Assembly: GCA_945888515.1 (NCBI GenBank) | Contig: CAMDAD010000010.1 | Location: 39,608-103,607, forward strand | DNA length: 64,000 nt | Source: Akkermansia muciniphila | Lineage (GTDB): Bacteria > Verrucomicrobiota > Verrucomicrobiia > Verrucomicrobiales > Akkermansiaceae | Direction of reading: 5' to 3' | Part shown: one piece after another, positions 1,382 through 64,000 of the stretch | Position numbering within the stretch: position 1 is the first letter of the stretch | Layout: each line of letters starts with the position of its first letter | The notes under the pieces: generated by a model | The model's input: the letters and a program-made list of their open reading frames with translations, nothing else | Database searches by the model: none | What the model was told of the DNA's origin: nothing | Translations under genes and position numbers: made by a program

Positions 1382-4300
1382 ATGAAGCTGATTGCGGCAT
1401 TGATTTCCCTGTTGGTTCTCGTCCCTCGTGTTTCAGAGGCGCAGACCACGATCAATGCTGTCTATTTCGGACAAACGCATGTGCTGAAGGCCAGTGATAC
1501 GTATTTCGGCCTAGTGGGCAATCGCGAGGCTCTGATCAAAGCGCATGTGATCAATCCCGCCGCACCCGCATCGCCCGCGGTCAGTGCGACGCTCTCACTG
1601 GGTGGTCAGACACTCGTCGTTCCGCTCACAGGTCCAGCGACGCTGCCTGCTTCGATTCCTGATGGGCCTGGTGTCGTCCAGCACTCGTTCGCCAACACCT
1701 TCACCGGTTATATTCCCGCCGCATGGGTGAAAACGGGCTTGCAGGTCACAGTCACCGCTGGATCGGCCAGTATTAGGATTACGGACATGAAGGTAGGTGC
1801 TCCGAGCAAGGTTCTCATGACCATGCTGGACATCCATTATTTTTCGCAGACTACTGGCAATTATCCAAATGGCACATTCGATGAGATCGAGGCGAAATGG
1901 CCGGTGGCAGATCTTGAAATTCGCCGCCGATCCAATGTCGTATTTCCAGAACTGGTAATTCCTCCGCGTGGTGGAGCACCTGCTGCCCGCGTCAAGTCGA
2001 GAGCGGACTACACAGCCCAGACTGGTCTTCCATTTGACGGCGAGCAGGCTGCGGCCCTGGAGTGGAATGCTGCGTTGAAGCGAGCCGCAGGTCGATCTGG
2101 TGGCTGGAGCCTTTATTATCTCAATATTTACAACGCAAATGCCGGTGGACAGGCCGGCGGCTTCGCGGGTGTGGGAAATGGCACCTCCGTCGGCATCCTG
2201 CACCATGAACTGGGCCATGCACTATCTCTTCCGCACTGGGGCGACAGCGCAGCCTATCCTTACAAAGGAGCAATGCATGGGATCTCGGCGCCATCAATTT
2301 ACAATGCCACTCACGCAGGTCCTGCATGGGCTTTCGACCTTCGAAATAAGGCTTTCATCCCCTGCAAAACGCAATCTGGTAATACGGGAGGCAACACGGT
2401 AGGCACTTACAAAGCAGATCCCATGCAAGGAGGTGGGACCGGATGGCAGGAGCCTGCTTATCTCATGAATCATTTCTCGGATTACTCGGTGAATCAAATG
2501 CGCAGCTACCTGCACAGTCACATGGTCGTGTGGAACCCGGCATTAAATAGCTACGCTAGATGGAACCAGGCCGCCGGCGACTACACCACCACGCTGACAA
2601 ACAACGGTGTGCAATTCCCAACCACCCGGGACGTCCAAGTGATCAGTATCATGGCTACGATGTCTGGTGCCAAACCGGATGTTACCATGGTTTACCCTCC
2701 CATCGGACCCTACACCTCTGGGCTCATCAGGCTCTTTGATGCTACGGTCTCCGCCGATCGGTCGGCGGCCAATTCGCTCTTCAATCTTTCTAACAACTGC
2801 GACTACAGTGCAAGAGTGCTGCAGAATGGCGTGACTAAGACCTACATCATCCCAGCGTCATCCTTGACATCCGCCGACCCCTTGAATGCGAACAGCATAG
2901 AAACCGAGGCGATTAACCTGCCTGCCTCTGCGGGCACCGTGACTAAGATTGAACTGCTCTCCACTCCCAACGTCGAGGACGTTGGCCTGCCGACCAATCC
3001 CTCAATACTTTATACATGGTCGGCATTCGCACCGGAGGTGGCCGCCTTCGAAATCGCGCCTCTTGCCTATAGCACATCGACCATTTCGATGAGAGCCGTT
3101 GAAGGGCAGCTTGCCCCCGGCTTCACCGGTCCGGTGGAATACCGATTTACGGAAACTACGGGCAACCCCGGTGCCAGTTCTAGTGGATGGCAAGCCAGCA
3201 GGACTTATACCGACTCCGGCCTTCAAGCTGGCACTGCTTATTCCTACAGGGTTGAAATGCGAGCTGGATCCCTAACTGCCGCGCCCTCGGTGGTGATGTC
3301 TGCCACCACCTCCAACGCGCCGGCTAAACAAAGTGTGGTTGTGAACTCCACCCAGCAGTTCAATTTGCAAAGCGGTAGTGGTTTGAAAGGTGTCACGGGA
3401 CTGGGCACCTTCAATGCGAGTGGAGCCGACAAGCTCGTAGTGGTGATTTCCACAGAGGACGCTAACAACGCAGGCACTGGATTGGTCTATGAGGTCCGCT
3501 ACAATGGCAAAGTCATGACGGAGGCCATTCAGGAAAACGCGGGCGGTAATACCGGCACAGCCGCGATTTTCTTCCTTGATAATCCCGGGTCAATTGGTAG
3601 CGGCACGATCCAAGTATCGGCCGAGAATCCTAACGGCGGTATCGGTTGTGCTTACGCATTGTCCCATACCATGGCGGGGTTTGGCAGTTCCAATAGAAGA
3701 ACAGGTAGCACGGCTAATTCGGTGAACATCACTACGATAGGCGACGGCTCAGTCGTCATCGCAGTGATCGATAACGCCGGTAAGCCAAACAACTCTGGAA
3801 CTCCGACAGTCAATACGCCACTGATTCAAGCTAGTACAGGCTCCTGGGGTAGCCAGTGGGGCGGACATGCTTCGGGCTACCAAGCGGTCATCTCGCCCAC
3901 TACCCTCACGCTGGCCTTTACCACAAGCACGGGAACGGATTACTCGATCAATATCGCCGCTGTTGAGTTTCCAGCGCGGCCTCCATCACCGAACCGATGG
4001 ATCCAAACGGCGGGCGGAACACGAAACTGGACGGAATCGACAAACTGGGACGACGGCATCGTTCCCAGTCCAGCGTCTGGCACGACGATGGACTTTAGCA
4101 CGGTCAATATTGGTGCTAATACTACCGTGAATCTGGGGGCAGACCGCGCTGCGCAACTCTGGAAATTCGGTGATACCTCAGGCACACAGCGCTGGATTGT
4201 CAGCGCTGGAAATACACTCACGCTGGCTGGCATTACGCCCGGATTTCAGGTCAACAACGCAACCACTCAGATCGATAGCATCATCGCTGGCACGGCAGGC

Positions 4301-52446: not shown

Positions 52447-53811
52447 ATGCATCTCAAACATCTCATCCTCACCCTGATCCTGCTCGCCACCGCCACTGGT
52501 GCCGAGCGGCCTAACATTTTGTTCATCGCCATCGATGACCTCCGCCCCGAGCTCGGATGTTACGGAGCCCCGCAGGTCAAAACACCGCATATCGATCAAC
52601 TCGCCGCCGACGGCATGCGCTTCGACCGCGCCTATTGCCAGGTGCCGATCTGCATGGGCTCGCGCGCGTCGCTCATGACTGGGATGCTGCCCACCGCCAA
52701 ACGCTTCGTGGGAAATTGCCGCATGGACGTGGATGTGCCCACCGCCGCGACCTTGCCGGAGGTGTTTCGCAAAGCGGGCTACACCACTCTTTCTAACGGA
52801 AAAATCTATCACAATCAGGAAGACGCGGCGGACCGAAGCTGGAGCGAAGCGCCGTGGATGACTCGCGACAACATGCGCAGCTTCGACCCGGAGACCAAGC
52901 GTCGGCTTTCCAAAACCAAACAGCGCGGCCGCATCTACGAATTCCCCAATGTGGCCGACGATGTTTATCCCGATGGCGAAATCGCACAAAAAACCATCAA
53001 GGATCTCCAGCGACTCAAGCTCGAAGGAAAACCATTTTTCCTCGCCTGTGGATTTTTCAAACCGCACATGCCTTTCTATGCGCCGAAAAAATACTGGGAT
53101 CTTTACCCGCGCGATGCCATCCAACTCGCCCCCAACCGCCAACGCCCAGCCAAGGCGCCCGAGCAACTCGAAGGCAGCAATGAGTTCCGCAGTTACCACC
53201 TCGCGGACATGGATCCAAACTCGGACGAGTTCCACCGCATCATGCGCCACGGCTACCTCGCCTGCACCAGCTATACCGATCAACTCACCGGCGATGTGCT
53301 CGCGGAACTCGATCGACTCGGCCTTGCGGAAAACACCATCATCGTGCTCTGGGGTGACCACGGCTGGCACCTCGGCGAGCACAATTTCTGGGGCAAACAC
53401 AACACCATGCACCTCGCCATTCGCGTGCCGCTCATCGTGAAAGTCCCCGGTAAAAAACCGGGTGTCTCCGCAAGCCTCGTCGAGACCGCCGACCTCTTCC
53501 CCAGCCTCTGTGCGCTCGCCGGCATCGCCACACCCGCGACCGTGCAGGGCCGCGATTTCACCGCACTACTCGATGACCCTAACAAAAAAATCCACGAAGC
53601 CGCCTACAGCCGTTTCCTGAATGCCGATGCCGTCATCACCGATCGCTTTAGCTACACCAGCTACGACAACGGCAAAGCCCACATGCTCTACGATCTCACC
53701 AAAGACCCGCAGGAAAACAAAAACATCGCCGACGATCCCAAGCATACGGAAACCGTCGCCACGATGAAAAAACTGCTCAAGAAACGCATGGAGCAAGCGA
53801 AGAAGTCGTGA
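52447..53811 (+). CDS. sulfatase (iduronate-2-sulfatase-like) with a non-canonical C-M-G-S-R maturation motif
   Basis: Signal peptide. NILFIAIDDLRPELGCYG. Active-site segment CQVPICMGSRASLMTG (TGC ATG GGC TCG CGC at 52651-52665). WGDHGWHLGEH. Confidence 0.9.
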   Translation: MHLKHLILTLILLATATGAERPNILFIAIDDLRPELGCYGAPQVKTPHIDQLAADGMRFDRAYCQVPICMGSRASLMTGMLPTAKRFVGNCRMDVDVPTAATLPEVFRKAGYTTLSNGKIYHNQEDAADRSWSEAPWMTRDNMRSFDPETKRRLSKTKQRGRIYEFPNVADDVYPDGEIAQKTIKDLQRLKLEGKPFFLACGFFKPHMPFYAPKKYWDLYPRDAIQLAPNRQRPAKAPEQLEGSNEFRSYHLADMDPNSDEFHRIMRHGYLACTSYTDQLTGDVLAELDRLGLAENTIIVLWGDHGWHLGEHNFWGKHNTMHLAIRVPLIVKVPGKKPGVSASLVETADLFPSLCALAGIATPATVQGRDFTALLDDPNKKIHEAAYSRFLNADAVITDRFSYTSYDNGKAHMLYDLTKDPQENKNIADDPKHTETVATMKKLLKKRMEQAKKS

Positions 53812-55366: not shown

Positions 55367-56818
55367 TCATTTCTTCCCTTTTCCTTTCGGCTTATTGCCC
55401 GCAGCTCCATTCATGAGATCGGGTAGGGGCAGGTAGTCGAAATCGAGAATCATCTTCTCCGCCAGGGCAAGGCGTAGCGATCGCTCCACTGCCGCCAACT
55501 CGGGCTTGCCGCTGAGATTGTTCAGCTCCGAGGGATCGGCATCGAGGTCATAGAGCTCATACACGGGACGCGGGGAGGTGAAATACGTCGCGACCAATCC
55601 TGCGGAAAGTTTCCCCTGTTCCTTGGCTTGCCTCATCTGATACCATGCCCCCCCTCCGGTGGAATCCACCGGCGCGTAGGGAAGCCACGGCGTGCAGTTG
55701 TAGATCAGCTTGTGGTGATCGCTCCGAACAGCGCGGGAGAGGTCGTAGCCGCTGTTTGACATCCCTAACGCAACGGGCGCACTGCCGTGCGGACCGCGTT
55801 CGAGAAAGACGTGTTTGCGCGGCTGCTGCGTTTCGCCTTTCAGCAATGGCAGGAAACTTACTCCGCTCATTTTTGGAATGGAAGCCACTCCGGCGGCGGC
55901 GAGAAGGGTCGGCGCTAGGTCCTCACCGCTGAGTAGTGCTCGCGATTCCGTGCCGGGTTTCACGACTCCCGGCCAGCGCACGAGACAAGGCACGTTGCAG
56001 CCGGGGTCATACAGCGAGCCTTTGCCATGTGGAAGGGCGGCACCGTTGTCGCCGATGAAAACAATCACCGTCGAATCGAACAGGCCGCGTTTTTTCAATA
56101 CCTCTAAGACACCCGCGAGAGTGTGATCCAGGCGGTTGACCTCGGCACAGTAGTCCGCCAACTGCGCCCGCACACCCGGCAGGTCGGGCCAGTGGGCGGG
56201 CAATTGCAATGTCGCGGGATCAGGACGGTAGTCGGCGGGAGCGCTCCACTCATGGTGGGGATCGCTGAAATTCGCCCACATGAAAAAGGGCTTCTCCGCT
56301 GGCTTCTGATCAAGAAATGTCTCCAATTGCGACGCCACTGCGTTATCGGCGCAGACATTGAGAAAATCCACTCGCTGTGCAAAGGTCTTGAGTTTGTGTT
56401 GATCAAAAAGCGCATTCATCTCTTTGCTGGCGACTTTCGTGGAGCCATCGAGATGGTAACTGCGACCGCAAATGCCGGTGAAATATCCCGCCTGCGATCG
56501 CAGCAACTCGGGGAACGTAATCTCGTCCCTAGCCAGTGGTGCCGAAAACCGGGTGATGCGCGCCGCCACCGGCGAACGCCCCGTCAATAGCGAGGCGCGG
56601 GAGGGCACGCACTGCGGCGCAGTGGTGAAAAACCGATGGAACTTCATGCCCTCGGCGGCGATACGATCCAGCGTGGGGGTCTTGACGTTCTTATCACCAT
56701 AACAACTCAGAAACGGATAGCTGTGGTCGTCACTAAGGAGGAAAAGCATGTTCGGCTTGGCCGCGAAAGACGAACTCGCGAGGGTGAGTGACGAGAGGAA
56801 GAGGAAAAGGATTTTCAT
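55367..56818 (-). CDS. arylsulfatase-family sulfatase
   Basis: Signal peptide MKILFLFLSSLTLASSSFA. NMLFLLSDDHSYP. Canonical APQCVPSRASLLTGR. ATG at 56818. Confidence 0.9.
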   Translation of the reverse strand: MKILFLFLSSLTLASSSFAAKPNMLFLLSDDHSYPFLSCYGDKNVKTPTLDRIAAEGMKFHRFFTTAPQCVPSRASLLTGRSPVAARITRFSAPLARDEITFPELLRSQAGYFTGICGRSYHLDGSTKVASKEMNALFDQHKLKTFAQRVDFLNVCADNAVASQLETFLDQKPAEKPFFMWANFSDPHHEWSAPADYRPDPATLQLPAHWPDLPGVRAQLADYCAEVNRLDHTLAGVLEVLKKRGLFDSTVIVFIGDNGAALPHGKGSLYDPGCNVPCLVRWPGVVKPGTESRALLSGEDLAPTLLAAAGVASIPKMSGVSFLPLLKGETQQPRKHVFLERGPHGSAPVALGMSNSGYDLSRAVRSDHHKLIYNCTPWLPYAPVDSTGGGAWYQMRQAKEQGKLSAGLVATYFTSPRPVYELYDLDADPSELNNLSGKPELAAVERSLRLALAEKMILDFDYLPLPDLMNGAAGNKPKGKGKK

Positions 56819-59872: not shown

Positions 59873-60586
59873 TCAATCAGCGATTCCGTCAACGCTGCGT
59901 TTTTTGCGCATCAGCGGCACGGTCAGCAGCACAAAGAGCAGCAGAGCGATGACTTCGAAGGCGAAAATGTAGTAGGGCCAGGGCCCAAGGTGATCGATGA
60001 GGCTGGGATTCGGTGGCGGGTGGGCGACAAAGCCGAAGTTGGTGCCCAGCGCCGCATTGACGATCGCCGCGAAGAGAAGATAGAGATTCACACAGAAAAA
60101 CGCCCGCAGCGGGCTCGTCCACCACGGATGCCGTGGCCGCCATCCATCGCAGATCGGCAGAAACAGCGCCGCGCCGACGATGGCAAAGTGATGCAGGAAA
60201 AACGAAAAAAAGGTGAGGTGCGGATACGAGTAGGTCAGCGCAGGCGTGATCAGTGCCTGCAGCGTGGCCGCCAGTCCCCAGTAGTAGGTCAGGGTCTGCG
60301 CCCAGTGCTTTCGTGTGAGCAGGGCATAGCCTGCGAGAAAGGCGGCGATGTCGCAGAGATGGAAGGGCAGGATGTTGTCCAGATCCAGTGCATGCTGGCA
60401 GGTGCTCCACGCATACTGAGAATAGCCGTAGGCGCTGAGGCAGAAAAACGCCAATACCGCGCGGGCCAGCGGTTGCGCGATGGCAGGCGAGCGCCTCGCT
60501 CCGATCAATAGAATCGCCAGCAAAGCAAATCCCAGCCCCACCGAGATCAGGTGAGTGGACGAGAAAACGACAAAGCGGGCAGGCAT
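59873..60586 (-). CDS. integral membrane protein (YwaF/TIGR02206-like)
   Basis: Multiple TM helices and an LPFHLCDIAAF motif. The ATG at 60586 (MPARFVVFSSTHLISVG) is preferred. The track ORF begins at a TTG (60667). Confidence 0.7.
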   Translation of the reverse strand: MPARFVVFSSTHLISVGLGFALLAILLIGARRSPAIAQPLARAVLAFFCLSAYGYSQYAWSTCQHALDLDNILPFHLCDIAAFLAGYALLTRKHWAQTLTYYWGLAATLQALITPALTYSYPHLTFFSFFLHHFAIVGAALFLPICDGWRPRHPWWTSPLRAFFCVNLYLLFAAIVNAALGTNFGFVAHPPPNPSLIDHLGPWPYYIFAFEVIALLLFVLLTVPLMRKKRSVDGIAD

Positions 60587-61078
60587 GCGACAGTTGTAGC
60601 AAGTGTCGATCTCTGAGCGAGAAAAAATCACACCAGCCTCAGCCGCCCAGAGTCCCATCAGAGACAACTCACCCCCACCGCAAGATCCCTAAGGCCGAGG
60701 CATGGATTTATCTTTTTGGAAAGATTCGTTGATTTTATCGATTCAATGGATTTTTTATAGTGATCATAGCAGAATAATCGAACAGGCTTGTTACCAATTT
60801 TTTCTTGCGTGCGTATCTGATTTCGTTACACTAGTAACGTGTTTGATACAAAAGCTCTCACTTTGGCGAAAGACGGATCTGTGCGCGTGCGCTTGGATCT
60901 CAGGAGGCCCGTGATCCTAAGACAGAATCACATAGGTAAGCTCCCGCGTGTGTCTGCCAAAAATCAAGCTGATGGCGCAGGGTCGAGCCTGTCAATTGCG
61001 CTCCGTTCGTCAGCGCGGAAACAGTCGTGTAATCACTCATAAAAGGATTAATCCATCGACCTCTTTTTTAGAATAATC

Positions 61079-62626
61079 ATGAAAAACAAAAAAATCTCCC
61101 CCGTCATGCACCACAACACACGACAGGATCAAGACTTGCGCGATCACGCTCAGTGGAGCGCAAGGTTACTGAAATTTCTGCCTTCGGGTCTGGCAAAGCT
61201 AGCCTTGTGCTTAGGAGTTGGACTGTTGTTATCCGTTCCTGCGATGGCCCAAGCGCCCGTGGTCTCGAATGTGCTGGCTCAACAACGCTCGGGAACGAAA
61301 CTGGTGGATATCACGTATGATGTGACGGCTGTTACGCCCGAGGTGTCGATCTCACTGCGGATTTCAAACGATGGGGGTGCGAGCTACAACATCCCTGCCA
61401 CGACATTGTCCGGTGCTGTGGGGGCCAATGTGACAATAGGAACCGGAAAAGTGATCACGTGGAATGCGGGTGTGGATTGGAACGGCAATTACAATACAGG
61501 CATGCGATTCGAGGTGACGGCGGATGACGGTGTGATACCACCCACCATCACGACACAACCAGCAACGCAGACAATAGCCAGCGGCAGCACGGCGAACCTG
61601 ACGGTGACTGCGAGCGGATCGGTTCCACTGACGTATCAATGGTATCAGGGATCTGTTGGTACGACGACCACACCAGTAGGGACGAATTCAGCTTCATTCA
61701 CGACGCCCGCTCTGACGGCCACGACGACCTACTGGGTTCGGGTGAGTAATTCGGCGGGAAATGTGAACTCCACTCTTGCCACGGTGACGGTGGCCAGCAT
61801 CCCGGCGGATCTTGCGCTCATTCCAGCGGGAACCTTCACGATGGGCCGAACCAGTGGCGATACAGATAGCGATGCTCCCTCCGTTTCGGTGACGGTGAGT
61901 GCCTTTTACATGGGGAAGAACGAGGTGACGAAGGCCTTGTGGGACGAGGTGCGGACCTGGGCGGCGGCGAATGGCTACTCGGATCTGGCCACTGGCGCTG
62001 GTAAGGCGAGCAATCATCCCGTGCAGGCCGTGAGTTGGTGGGATGTGATCAAGTGGTGCAATGCCAGAAGTCAGAAAGAAGGATTAACGCCTTGTTACAC
62101 GGTGAGTGGATCGGTGATGAAAACAGGAACCACAGCGCCGACAGTAAATTGGACTGCCAATGGCTATCGTCTTCCTACTGAAGCAGAGTGGGAGAAAGCA
62201 GCACGCGGTGGCGTGAGTGGTAAGCGTTTCCCTTGGGGCACAGATACGATCAGTCATACTCAGGCGAATTTTTACAACGTAAACGGTGAATCTTATCAAA
62301 CAGGAACGACTGGCTACCACCCGACTTACGCGACGGGCGCGACGCCCTACACCTCGCCTGTGGGTGCCTTTACAGCGAATGGTTATGGACTGAATGACAT
62401 GGCGGGAAATGTGTGGGAGTGGTGTTGGGATTGGTATGGGGCGTCGACGTATGTGAATGGATCGACGAATCCACGGGGTGCTGCTTCGGGCACGATCCGG
62501 GTGGGCCGGGGCGGCAGCTGGTTCGACTACGCGTTCAGCTGCCGCGCCGCGGTCCGCTACTACTACGACCCGACGGGCCGGGACTACCACATCGGGTTCC
62601 GCATGGCCCGCAGTTCAGTCCCCTAG
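61079..62626 (+). CDS. secreted Ig-repeat protein with a C-terminal FGE-sulfatase/C-type-lectin-fold domain (non-catalytic), candidate DGR target
   Basis: N-terminal hydrophobic anchor. Ig-like repeat PPTITTQPATQTIASGSTANLTVTASG...YQWYQG. FGE-family motifs HPVQAVSWWDVIKWCNA, GYRLPTEAEWEKAARGG, NVWEWCWDWY and RGGSW...IGFR. It lacks the paired catalytic cysteines of true FGE. Confidence 0.9.
   Translation: MKNKKISPVMHHNTRQDQDLRDHAQWSARLLKFLPSGLAKLALCLGVGLLLSVPAMAQAPVVSNVLAQQRSGTKLVDITYDVTAVTPEVSISLRISNDGGASYNIPATTLSGAVGANVTIGTGKVITWNAGVDWNGNYNTGMRFEVTADDGVIPPTITTQPATQTIASGSTANLTVTASGSVPLTYQWYQGSVGTTTTPVGTNSASFTTPALTATTTYWVRVSNSAGNVNSTLATVTVASIPADLALIPAGTFTMGRTSGDTDSDAPSVSVTVSAFYMGKNEVTKALWDEVRTWAAANGYSDLATGAGKASNHPVQAVSWWDVIKWCNARSQKEGLTPCYTVSGSVMKTGTTAPTVNWTANGYRLPTEAEWEKAARGGVSGKRFPWGTDTISHTQANFYNVNGESYQTGTTGYHPTYATGATPYTSPVGAFTANGYGLNDMAGNVWEWCWDWYGASTYVNGSTNPRGAASGTIRVGRGGSWFDYAFSCRAAVRYYYDPTGRDYHIGFRMARSSVP
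62497..62610 (+). other. candidate DGR variable region (VR) at the gene's 3' end
   Basis: Fourteen interspersed codons between 62522 and 62590 are all NNC, at positions that are Asn (AAC) in typical FGE-type template repeats. Scaffold codons in between are conserved. The boundaries are approximate. Confidence 0.5.
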
Positions 62627-62710
62627 CACAGCAGGAAGCGGAGCGAACGGAACGGAGTAGCTAAGCGAGGGACGAGCGCAGGCAACGGAGTGAAGGGAGC
62701 GGAGAGGTTG

Positions 62711-62815
62711 GAAGTATGAAGTATGAAGTATGAAGTATGAAGTATGAAGTATGAAGTATGAAGTATGAAGTATGAAGTATGAAGTATGAAGTATGAAGTA
62801 TGAAGTATGAAGTAT
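62711..62815. repeat. perfect heptanucleotide microsatellite (GAAGTAT)x15
   Basis: Direct reading shows 105 nt of uninterrupted GAAGTAT units. They are intergenic, lying between the FGE-fold gene stop (62626) and a hairpin at 62839. Confidence 0.98.
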
Positions 62816-62838
62816 GATGTGATGAAAACCGAGTTGGT

Positions 62839-62870
62839 GCAGGGGCGTAGCCCCTGCTGGAGAATTTTTT
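62839..62870 (+). terminator. hairpin plus T-tract, possible terminator of the FGE-fold gene transcript
   Basis: GCAGGGGC-GTA-GCCCCTGC (8-bp perfect stem, 62839-62857), then TGGAGAA and TTTTTT (62865-62870). The 7-nt spacer makes it atypical. Confidence 0.4.
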
Positions 62871-62892
62871 AAGAAACTGAGTTTATTGATCG

Positions 62893-63108
62893 ATGCCATT
62901 TGAATTCATACAAATTCCTGCCAATGGGCAGGGAAGTGCGAAGGATGAGTTAAACAAACTCCTCCGGAGCGGGCGCATCGCGTCGGTGAAGAAGGAAGAG
63001 ATTCGTAGCAATATTCATCGCCCTCCCATACTCAGCAACCCCATCATCTCTCGTCTTTTTGGTCCCTATCTTAAGAGTCACAACATCTCGCCACCAATTT
63101 TCATTTGA
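62893..63108 (+). CDS. small ORF (71 aa), possibly a truncated or decayed gene
   Basis: The ATG-initiated MPFEFIQIPANGQGSAKDELNKLLRSGRIASVKKE looks protein-like. The remainder (RSNIHRPPILSNPIISRLFGPYLKSHNISPPIFI) looks like read-through of non-coding DNA. AT-rich context. Confidence 0.25.
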   Translation: MPFEFIQIPANGQGSAKDELNKLLRSGRIASVKKEEIRSNIHRPPILSNPIISRLFGPYLKSHNISPPIFI

Positions 63109-63128
63109 TTTCTACCACGCTCTTACTC

Positions 63129-63962
63129 ATGAAAACGTTCTCTTTTCTACGATGCTTCCTTTTGACGCTTCTTGCGTCGCATCCGCTCAGTGCCCTCACA
63201 GGTTCTGGTGTAAGCGGCGCGACCACCGTGGATACCCGTTTTGTCCTTACCATTACACCCTCAAACAAGGGGGGCGTCTCAGGTGCAGGGCCCTATCTGG
63301 GGCAAGCTAACGCAACCCTTACTGCCACGCCACAACCTGGCTGTTTTTTCACCGCATGGACGGGAGACCTTACTGGCACACAAAATCCCGCTACGCTGCT
63401 GATGGATGGCGATAAAACCGTCGGTGCGACATTCGTAGAAGACACTAGCGATCCCGACGGTGATGGACTGACGAATTACCAAGAAATCGCGCTCACGCAG
63501 ACCAATCCGCTGCTATCAGATTCCAACGGCAATGGCATCAACGACGCACTGGAGGACACGGATAACGATGGCATTTCCAACCTCCGCGAAGTGACCGAAC
63601 TTAAGACTGATCCTTTGCGAGTCGACACGGATGCTGATGGATTGAGCGACACCTACGAACTGGTCTATAAGGGAAGCGTAGCTGCAAGCCAGCCGCGCAT
63701 CGGGGATAGGCTGCGCTTTGAACTGCGCGAACTCGTCCCGCAGGGCACGCTGAAGTTGGTGGGAACTTTGCCCACGGGCCTCACCTTTAACGCCCTTACC
63801 GGAGTGCTGGAAGGCAAACTCACTGGTAGGGTTGGCGCGGTGAACTTATCGATCCAAGTATTGAATGGCAGAACCGTCCTGCGCACCATTCCCTTTAGCT
63901 TCACGGTATCGGCATTCCCTGCGGGCCTCATCGGAACGTGGCAGTCTTGCTGGAAGATGTGA
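63129..63962 (+). CDS. secreted protein with an InlB-B-repeat-like domain, thrombospondin type-3 (calcium-binding) repeats and a putative Ig domain
   Basis: Signal peptide MKTFSFLRCFLLTLLASHPLSA. GGVSGAGPYLGQANATLTATPQPGCFFTAWTGD. DPDGDGLTNYQE, DSNGNGINDALEDTDNDGISNLRE and DTDADGLSDTYE. LPTGLTFNALTGVLEGKLTG. The stop at 63960-63962 may be premature (see findings). Confidence 0.8.
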   Translation: MKTFSFLRCFLLTLLASHPLSALTGSGVSGATTVDTRFVLTITPSNKGGVSGAGPYLGQANATLTATPQPGCFFTAWTGDLTGTQNPATLLMDGDKTVGATFVEDTSDPDGDGLTNYQEIALTQTNPLLSDSNGNGINDALEDTDNDGISNLREVTELKTDPLRVDTDADGLSDTYELVYKGSVAASQPRIGDRLRFELRELVPQGTLKLVGTLPTGLTFNALTGVLEGKLTGRVGAVNLSIQVLNGRTVLRTIPFSFTVSAFPAGLIGTWQSCWKM

Positions 63963-64000
63963 CTGGCAGCCCACAAGGACTCATCACCACCACCATTAGC

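Follow-up and report, generated by a model that had tools for sequence, protein, structure and literature searches.

A variable region in a Verrucomicrobiota FGE-fold gene is probably a remote target of a diversity-generating retroelement, rewritten after the loss of its own cassette

Can the target of a diversity-generating retroelement (DGR) go on being rewritten after the cassette beside it has been lost? This question is raised by a 64,000-nt stretch of DNA (the window) from an assembly assigned to Akkermansia muciniphila (GCA_945888515.1, contig CAMDAD010000010.1, positions 39,608 to 103,607), in which a gene for a protein with the fold shared by the formylglycine-generating enzyme (FGE) and the C-type lectins ends in what appears to be a DGR variable region (VR). 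An initial annotation of the same letters had drawn attention to this region and had left three options for it, namely a remote target of a DGR elsewhere, the edge of a cassette continuing past position 64000 or a fossil VR. After comparing the locus with its relatives, we favor the first option. With a probability of roughly 0.68, the VR is a remote target that was rewritten in trans after its local cassette had been lost, and it would be either still serviced or very recently orphaned.

The comparison depends on a syntenic orthologous locus carried by a 4.5-kb freshwater contig (L003, 1-4540), whose target protein shares 87% aa identity with that of the window and whose flanks match the window on both sides (60513-62729 and 63113-63549, 89-91% nt identity). 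Between the target and the downstream gene, L003 holds a complete cassette, consisting of a 155-aa HRDC gene (PF00570), a 453-aa reverse transcriptase (RT) with an RVT_1 domain (PF00078), a YMDD sequence and an IGSLTSQ motif, the last of which we take to be typical of DGR RTs, and an AAC-rich template repeat (TR) at 3765-3900, which reads ...GGSWNNNAINCRAANRNNNNPTNQNNNIGFRMAR. This TR belongs to the orthologous locus of a related organism, not to the window genome, and it aligns to the 3′ end of the window gene without a gap. The TR has 38 adenines, and 21 of them are substituted in the window (10 by T, 10 by G and 1 by C); the 89 non-adenine positions are all unchanged (hypergeometric p = 6e-14). 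Across the nine loci compared, the stretch directly behind the VR core is CAGTTCAGTCC in nearly all family VRs and CAGCTCAGACC in every TR, the exceptions to CAGTTCAGTCC being single-base variants in the decayed VR of locus L017 and in L020. Because the mismatches to the L003 TR are confined to adenines and the boundary has the expected direction, 62486-62612 is a genuine DGR variable region. The initial proposal of a DGR-type VR at the C terminus of an FGE/C-type-lectin-fold gene is thereby borne out, with 21/21 mismatches at adenines. The TRs of the family are lineage-specific: the five that were compared differ from one another at 3-9 non-adenine sites, and a given VR follows its own TR. 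The window VR best fits an L003-type TR (95/96 non-adenine sites, compared with 86-93 for the other TRs).

The codon signature of the region agrees with this origin. The 14 interspersed NNC codons listed at first (62522-62590) are present at those coordinates and all end in C, and the GAT, TAT, TAT, AAT and AAT codons noted just upstream in contrast to the all-C segment are likewise there. In the L003 TR, 13 of the 14 counterparts are AAC and one is ATC. The list was real but incomplete: the VR starts at 62486, not at 62522, and three further diversified codons had been missed, at 62495-62497 (ATC), 62504-62506 (GGC) and 62579-62581 (CGG, CAG in the TR), whose TR counterparts are two AAC and one CAG. 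The variable codons at the C-terminal end of this FGE/C-type-lectin-fold protein thus mostly derive from AAC, as in a DGR target. Every one of the 42 codons in 62486-62611 has G or C at its third position, which makes this the longest run of G/C-ending codons in the target gene, and the G+C content at third positions in the rest of the gene is 0.59 (p about 2e-10). Among the codons for F, D, Y, H and N, 48 end in T and 32 in C outside the VR, compared with 0 and 12 inside it (Fisher p = 6e-5). In the 34 other long open reading frames (ORFs) of the window, the C-ending fractions are 0.56 for F, 0.34 for D, 0.47 for Y, 0.53 for H and 0.46 for N. The C-ending positions are therefore local, as first supposed, and the window ORFs do not show the C-biased codon table that could have explained them otherwise.

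In place of a cassette, the window retains only a remnant. Behind the target gene stand 35 codons from the start of the HRDC accessory gene, which encode MPFEFIQIPANGQGSAKDELNKLLRSGRIASVKKE; 33/35 of these residues are identical to the N terminus of the L003 accessory protein, and intact cassettes in five distinct genomic contexts have kept this N terminus. The annotated 71-aa ORF at 62893-63108 enters unrelated sequence after codon 35, and beside the target we found neither an intact Avd gene nor an intact HRDC gene. The stub is succeeded by a filler sequence that stands in place of L003 2402-4103 (~1.7 kb, which comprises the remainder of HRDC together with the RT, the TR and a structured post-TR spacer). 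The initial annotation had rightly recorded that no RT-like ORF was present, and it had missed the accessory stub at 62893-62997 and the scar behind it. The same stub and breakpoint and a homologous filler occur in L002 (a 109-kb contig, 85% aa identity) and in L017 to L019 (three JGI samples, ~80% aa identity). Filler identities are 76%, 69% and 62%, which is about the level of neutral sites. Because these diverged lineages share the junction and their fillers have diverged like neutral sites, the cassette-less state is inherited and old. The stub itself would be the record of a former cassette, or of a module copied from such a cassette.

The VR is much younger than this loss would lead one to expect. 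Among the window, L002 and L003, third-codon divergence is 0.29-0.32 in the part of the FGE domain that immediately precedes the VR; inside the VR, 1/42 non-adenine third positions differ between lineages (p = 1e-5). Because of this difference, 1/42 compared with ~30% upstream, the VRs of the cassette-less lineages have been re-templated long after the lineages split, and thus after the shared loss of the cassette. The 95% upper bounds place the last rewriting of the window VR in roughly the final 40-45% of the period that followed the split from L002 and L003. The VR of L017, which lies at the same cassette-less junction, carries TGG>TAT, TGC>TGT and GCG>GCC changes and a 3-nt insertion, all identical in three samples. 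We read it as a fossil control, and no decay of its kind is seen in the window VR. Of the options given initially, the remote target is thus favored and a strictly fossil VR is disfavored, as the L017-type decay is missing although the loss appears ancient. Rewriting after the loss would imply that a DGR of the Treponema type (HRDC), situated elsewhere in the genome, homes to this VR in trans, and such a donor cassette probably still services the VR or did so until recently.

Overall, we provide a putative mechanism for this locus. In the Treponema-type family, the cassette has the order target, HRDC accessory gene, RT and TR. The TR RNA is copied by the RT with misincorporation specific to adenines, the resulting cDNA overwrites the VR, and the VR-specific 3′ boundary determines in which direction the transfer runs. 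At the window locus, the local cassette was lost long ago, leaving 35 accessory codons and the ~115-nt scar, and a cassette elsewhere in the genome would have rewritten the VR in trans after that loss.

The diversified protein is predicted to be a binding scaffold. Its N terminus carries a hydrophobic leader (...LLLSVPAMA/QAP, judged by eye), which is followed by a region without a Pfam match and then by an Ig-like and an FGE-sulfatase domain. The divergences from its orthologues at codon positions 1, 2 and 3 are 0.10, 0.08 and 0.30, which is consistent with purifying selection on the gene. Among the PDB matches of the FGE-fold domain are FGEs of human and bacterial origin as well as TvpA of Treponema denticola (2Y3C, E = 5e-26). 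Catalytic FGE uses a pair of active-site cysteines within an LCH...YC motif. In the target protein this pair is incomplete: the first active-site cysteine of both the bacterial and the human enzyme aligns to the D of 'FDY', which is a DGR-variable codon and N in the TR. Because a DGR-variable residue replaces this cysteine, the protein is not a catalytic FGE, and it would be a binding scaffold like TvpA. By analogy with TvpA (2Y3C), the variable residues would line the ligand-binding face of an extracellularly displayed C-type-lectin fold; the present allele has many aromatic and many acidic residues (FDY, YYYD, DYH). Thousands of Verrucomicrobiota homologues are hypervariable in precisely the columns flagged here (RGGSW-xxx-A-xx-CR-xA-x-R-xxxx-P...). 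Upstream of the FGE-fold gene, at a distance of 6-10 kb, are two sulfatase genes (52447-53811 and 55367-56749). Such neighbors could mislead annotation into naming a DGR target a sulfatase-maturing enzyme, and the target gene should not be named formylglycine-generating enzyme.

The search for the donor covered the window, its continuation and public collections. The exact target protein was located on a 180,801-bp metagenomic contig (ENA ERZ27280300), which extends the window by 8.6 kb, to the window-equivalent position 72626 (locus L001). Results from blastn, an adenine-tolerant scan and tblastn uphold the earlier observation that the 64 kb hold neither a second copy of the VR nor an RT. Over the 8.6 kb that follow position 64000, the suggestion of a cassette edge is refuted, as L001 contains no RT, no HRDC gene and no TR. 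RT and TR are therefore absent within -61 kb and +10 kb of the target locus. In the sibling sample ERZ27315199, only an internally deleted cassette of a different organism was found (L022). A scan of GTDB representatives with N at the TR-adenine sites returned one Luteolibacter metagenome-assembled genome (MAG) contig only (identical in sequence to L004), with VR and TR. The JGI metagenomes yielded neither the cassette-less junction nor an exact L003-type TR, and the viral contigs scanned gave no match and no sign of phage carriage.

Several of our results weigh against a target that is still rewritten from a distance. Throughout the window and L001, no TR was found by blastn (word size 7) or by an adenine-tolerant sliding score, whose best non-self value, 90/131 with only 47 exact matches, is noise; tblastn found no RT in the same sequence. 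None of the RT clusters among the best 120 homologues (at least 49% identity) lies on a contig of 180,801 bp, and the closest RT and HRDC relatives whose samples were traced come from other samples, none of them ERZ27280300. The window genome is not among the GTDB species representatives. Overall, no donor cassette for this genome was found in the 64-kb window, in the next 8.6 kb or by the RT/HRDC homologue search. The databases hold a single VR allele of the target gene. Additionally, L003, which is the only relative with an intact cassette at the locus, nests among three cassette-less lineages by sequence identity; this would imply either that a cassette was regained at the stub or that its presence and absence coexisted as a long-lived polymorphism. 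Finally, the frequent decay of cassettes (L020, L021 and L022) raises the prior for orphaned targets.

These points bear above all on the possibility that the last cassette to write the VR, whether local or remote, is gone from the genome, and that the VR is a true fossil, frozen and too young to have drifted. We consider this unlikely but worth serious attention. It would account for the failure to find an RT or a TR in 72.6 kb and for the lack of a close RT or HRDC homologue traced to sample ERZ27280300, and it agrees with the decayed cassettes and VRs that are common among relatives and with the identical protein on the only two contigs that carry the target protein. However, with 0/89 non-adenine changes and 0/42 third-position changes, homing would have taken place within the last ~40-45% of the time since the L002/L003 split, whereas the junction predates that split, and a trans-acting cassette would have been needed after the local loss even so. 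Moreover, DGR contigs assemble poorly, most of them being 1-8 kb long, so a failed donor search is weak evidence.

If the local cassette had instead been lost recently and independently, the VR would last have been written in cis, and the likeness of the junctions would be coincidental or spread by recombination. L003, the closest locus by its flanks, keeps its cassette at the same place, as this explanation would predict. However, three lineages share one breakpoint and a homologous ~115-nt filler, and the filler has diverged by 24-38%, which is neutral-like and not the mark of a recent transfer, and we therefore regard a recent loss as very improbable. We give next to no credence to the view that no DGR was ever involved and that the NNC codons and the GC-rich stretch reflect composition or codon bias in an ordinary sulfatase-maturing FGE. 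The two sulfatase genes upstream and the best PDB scores of the domain, which belong to true FGEs, speak for such an enzyme. Against it stand a codon usage that is not C-biased, the confinement of all mismatches with a real TR to adenines (p = 6e-14), the accessory-gene stub next door and the replacement of the first catalytic FGE cysteine by a variable residue. Codon bias as an explanation was rejected on the codon fractions of the 34 ORFs and on the within-gene test, and a real FGE serving the neighboring sulfatases was rejected on the position of the first catalytic cysteine opposite a DGR-variable codon. Rewriting in trans after the loss of the local cassette is thus the reading that we retain, and the features of the locus are collected in Table 1.

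Table 1. Features at and around the DGR target in the window
Feature	Positions	Strand	Basis or remark
DGR target gene	61079-62626	+	Intact ORF, 515 aa
Ig-like domain (Ig_7/Ig_3; PF19081/PF13927)	61541-61795	+	Pfam, aa 155-239
FGE-sulfatase (C-type-lectin-like) domain	61808-62611	+	PF03781, aa 244-511, E = 6.7e-51
Variable region (VR), 127 nt	62486-62612	+	Ungapped alignment to L003 TR
VR-specific 3′ boundary (IMH-like)	62613-62621	+	VR/TR comparison across nine loci
Conserved purine-rich non-coding element, ~60 nt	62640-62700	+	Alignments of family loci
Heptanucleotide array (GAAGTAT) x 16.4, perfect, target 3′ untranslated region	62711-62826	+	
GC hairpin GCAGGGGC-GTA-GCCCCTGC, 7 nt later T6	62839-62870	+	Conserved in all loci
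HRDC accessory gene 5′ stub	62893-62997	+	First 35 codons; tblastn E = 3e-17
Putative deletion scar (filler), ~115 nt	62998-63112	+	Alignment to L003, L002, L017
Downstream surface-protein gene (Flg_new_2, TSP3, He_PIG)	63129-63962	+	Syntenic flank, outside DGR

The sequence 3′ of the VR contains several non-coding elements. The purine-rich element (..CGGAACGGAGTAGC.AAGCGAGGGACGAGCGCAGGCAACGGAGTGAAGGG) follows the stop codon of every family VR, that of the decayed L017 included, and may act in cis. In the RNAalifold prediction, it pairs with the 3′ end of the VR (19 pairs), and a single pair with a compensatory change gives weak covariation. The fold downstream of the VR was not more stable than shuffled sequences (z-score +1.4), and a search of Rfam with the sequence downstream of the VR gave one sub-threshold match only, at 62955-62996 (19.6 bits against a gathering threshold of 64.5, E 0.51). 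At the place of the heptanucleotide array, other heptamers are repeated in L021, as (GAAGGAT)n, and in L020, as (GAATGAT)n; in L002 and L003 this place is occupied by just a short ATGA-rich stretch. The array is a recurrent microsatellite that evolves fast. The GC hairpin at 62839-62870 is likely the terminator of the target gene; a simple terminator scan did not call it, its T-run being offset.

A block of 62 nt (62872-62933) is identical in the window and L002 although their neutral sites differ by ~25-30%. It covers the region just upstream of the stub start codon, the stub start itself and a CCTGCC-AATG-GGCAGG hairpin, and its identity suggests that the stub/promoter region is constrained even without a cassette. 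Truncated HRDC stubs of 66, 49 and 29 codons lie beside other FGE-type targets (L020 2320-2631; L021 9629-9775 and 13145-13231, respectively), and in L022 148-627, HRDC aa 1-122 are fused with a short piece of the RT and with the post-TR spacer, as in an internally deleted cassette. Some VRs next to decayed cassettes are drifting, as shown by NNC -> NNT changes in the P0098 VR of L021. Decay of the cassette that leaves a 5′ accessory stub is thus recurrent in the family. Because the stub/promoter region of cassette-less lineages is conserved far beyond neutral expectation and stubs of 29-66 codons recur at many loci, one could imagine that the VR, the ~60-nt element, the terminator and the accessory stub are selected together as a portable target module; we hold this to be a speculative and rather doubtful idea. 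If it were true, the module would provide the signals in cis through which a single distant HRDC-type DGR could rewrite many targets, and it would be a homology landing pad for the re-insertion of a cassette, as apparently happened in L003.

Other members of the family and the neighboring gene offer further observations. The loci L013 (2439), L014 (3395), L015 (314) and L016 (47) encode an identical RT (P0137) in different samples or MAGs, and they carry three distinct VR alleles whose differences fall only at TR-adenine sites; these alleles are direct evidence that a sister DGR of the family is active in nature. The ~180 nt 3′ of the TR (L003 3900-4085, with equivalents in L004, L008, L010 and L013) are conserved, with several hairpins and apparent compensatory changes, and presumably form a structured spacer that is part of the DGR RNA. 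The RT ORFs, as called, read through the TR in another frame. On the far side of the scar, the synteny of the surface-protein gene is common to L002, L003 and L017. The window copy is only 277 aa long, with a separately called gene of 364 aa behind it (L001 12860-13954), and its homologue in L002 is a single protein of 1496 aa that also has an FGE-sulfatase domain. The window copy of this Flg_new_2/TSP3/He_PIG gene may be disrupted or rearranged.

Among known systems, the closest likeness is to the T. denticola DGR and the HRDC-type 'Architecture C' to which it belongs (Wu et al. 2018, PMC5758913). As there, the accessory gene is HRDC and not Avd, the TR is AAC-rich, and the structure of the T. 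denticola target TvpA (2Y3C) is among the PDB matches of the window target. Unlike the T. denticola system, the host here is a member of the Verrucomicrobiota, with a Luteolibacter sp. MAG as the nearest named relative; the target carries N-terminal Ig-like domains, and the window copy has a truncated accessory stub and no cassette in reach. Remote DGR targets at distances above 100 kb have been documented, as have HRDC-type cassettes that act on FGE targets, and one T. denticola cassette is thought to diversify several non-adjacent targets (PMC5758913). With the mechanistic prototype, Bordetella phage BPP-1 (Mtd/Avd/Brt), the locus shares the adenine-specific transfer from TR to VR, the position of the VR in a C-terminal C-type-lectin fold, and a VR-specific 3′ boundary analogous to the difference between IMH (initiation of mutagenic homing) and IMH*. 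In contrast to BPP-1, the present system is chromosomal and not phage-borne, its accessory gene is HRDC instead of Avd, and a conserved ~60-nt purine-rich element takes the place of the short GC hairpin right after the boundary. The VR also resembles the remote targets of cyanobacteria and other non-phage DGRs, which lie far from the RT and are recognized only by their A-to-N differences (PMC5758913; PMC7517822), and FGE-type domains are common among such targets (PMC5758913; PMC7517822). In those cases, however, TR and target were found in one assembled genome, whereas here the TR comes from the orthologous locus of another organism. The target shares its fold and Pfam domain with the SUMF1/FGE family, and it differs from that family in that the first catalytic cysteine is a DGR-diversified position.

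All of this fits a known Treponema-type (Architecture C) DGR with FGE-fold and remote targets. Less usual is the evolutionary record, in which a stub and a scar persist across diverged lineages together with one decayed and one pristine VR. Surveys of DGRs in metagenomes count only VRs beside an RT (PMC8144416, explicit); therefore, remote targets such as the window VR are missed. The locus also shows that the third-position purity of NNC codons can serve as a freshness clock for orphan VRs. The locus offers a clean and datable case, with a loss common to three diverged lineages, a decayed VR in L017 and a pristine VR in the window, and it argues that homing in trans can maintain a target long after the loss of the cassette beside it.

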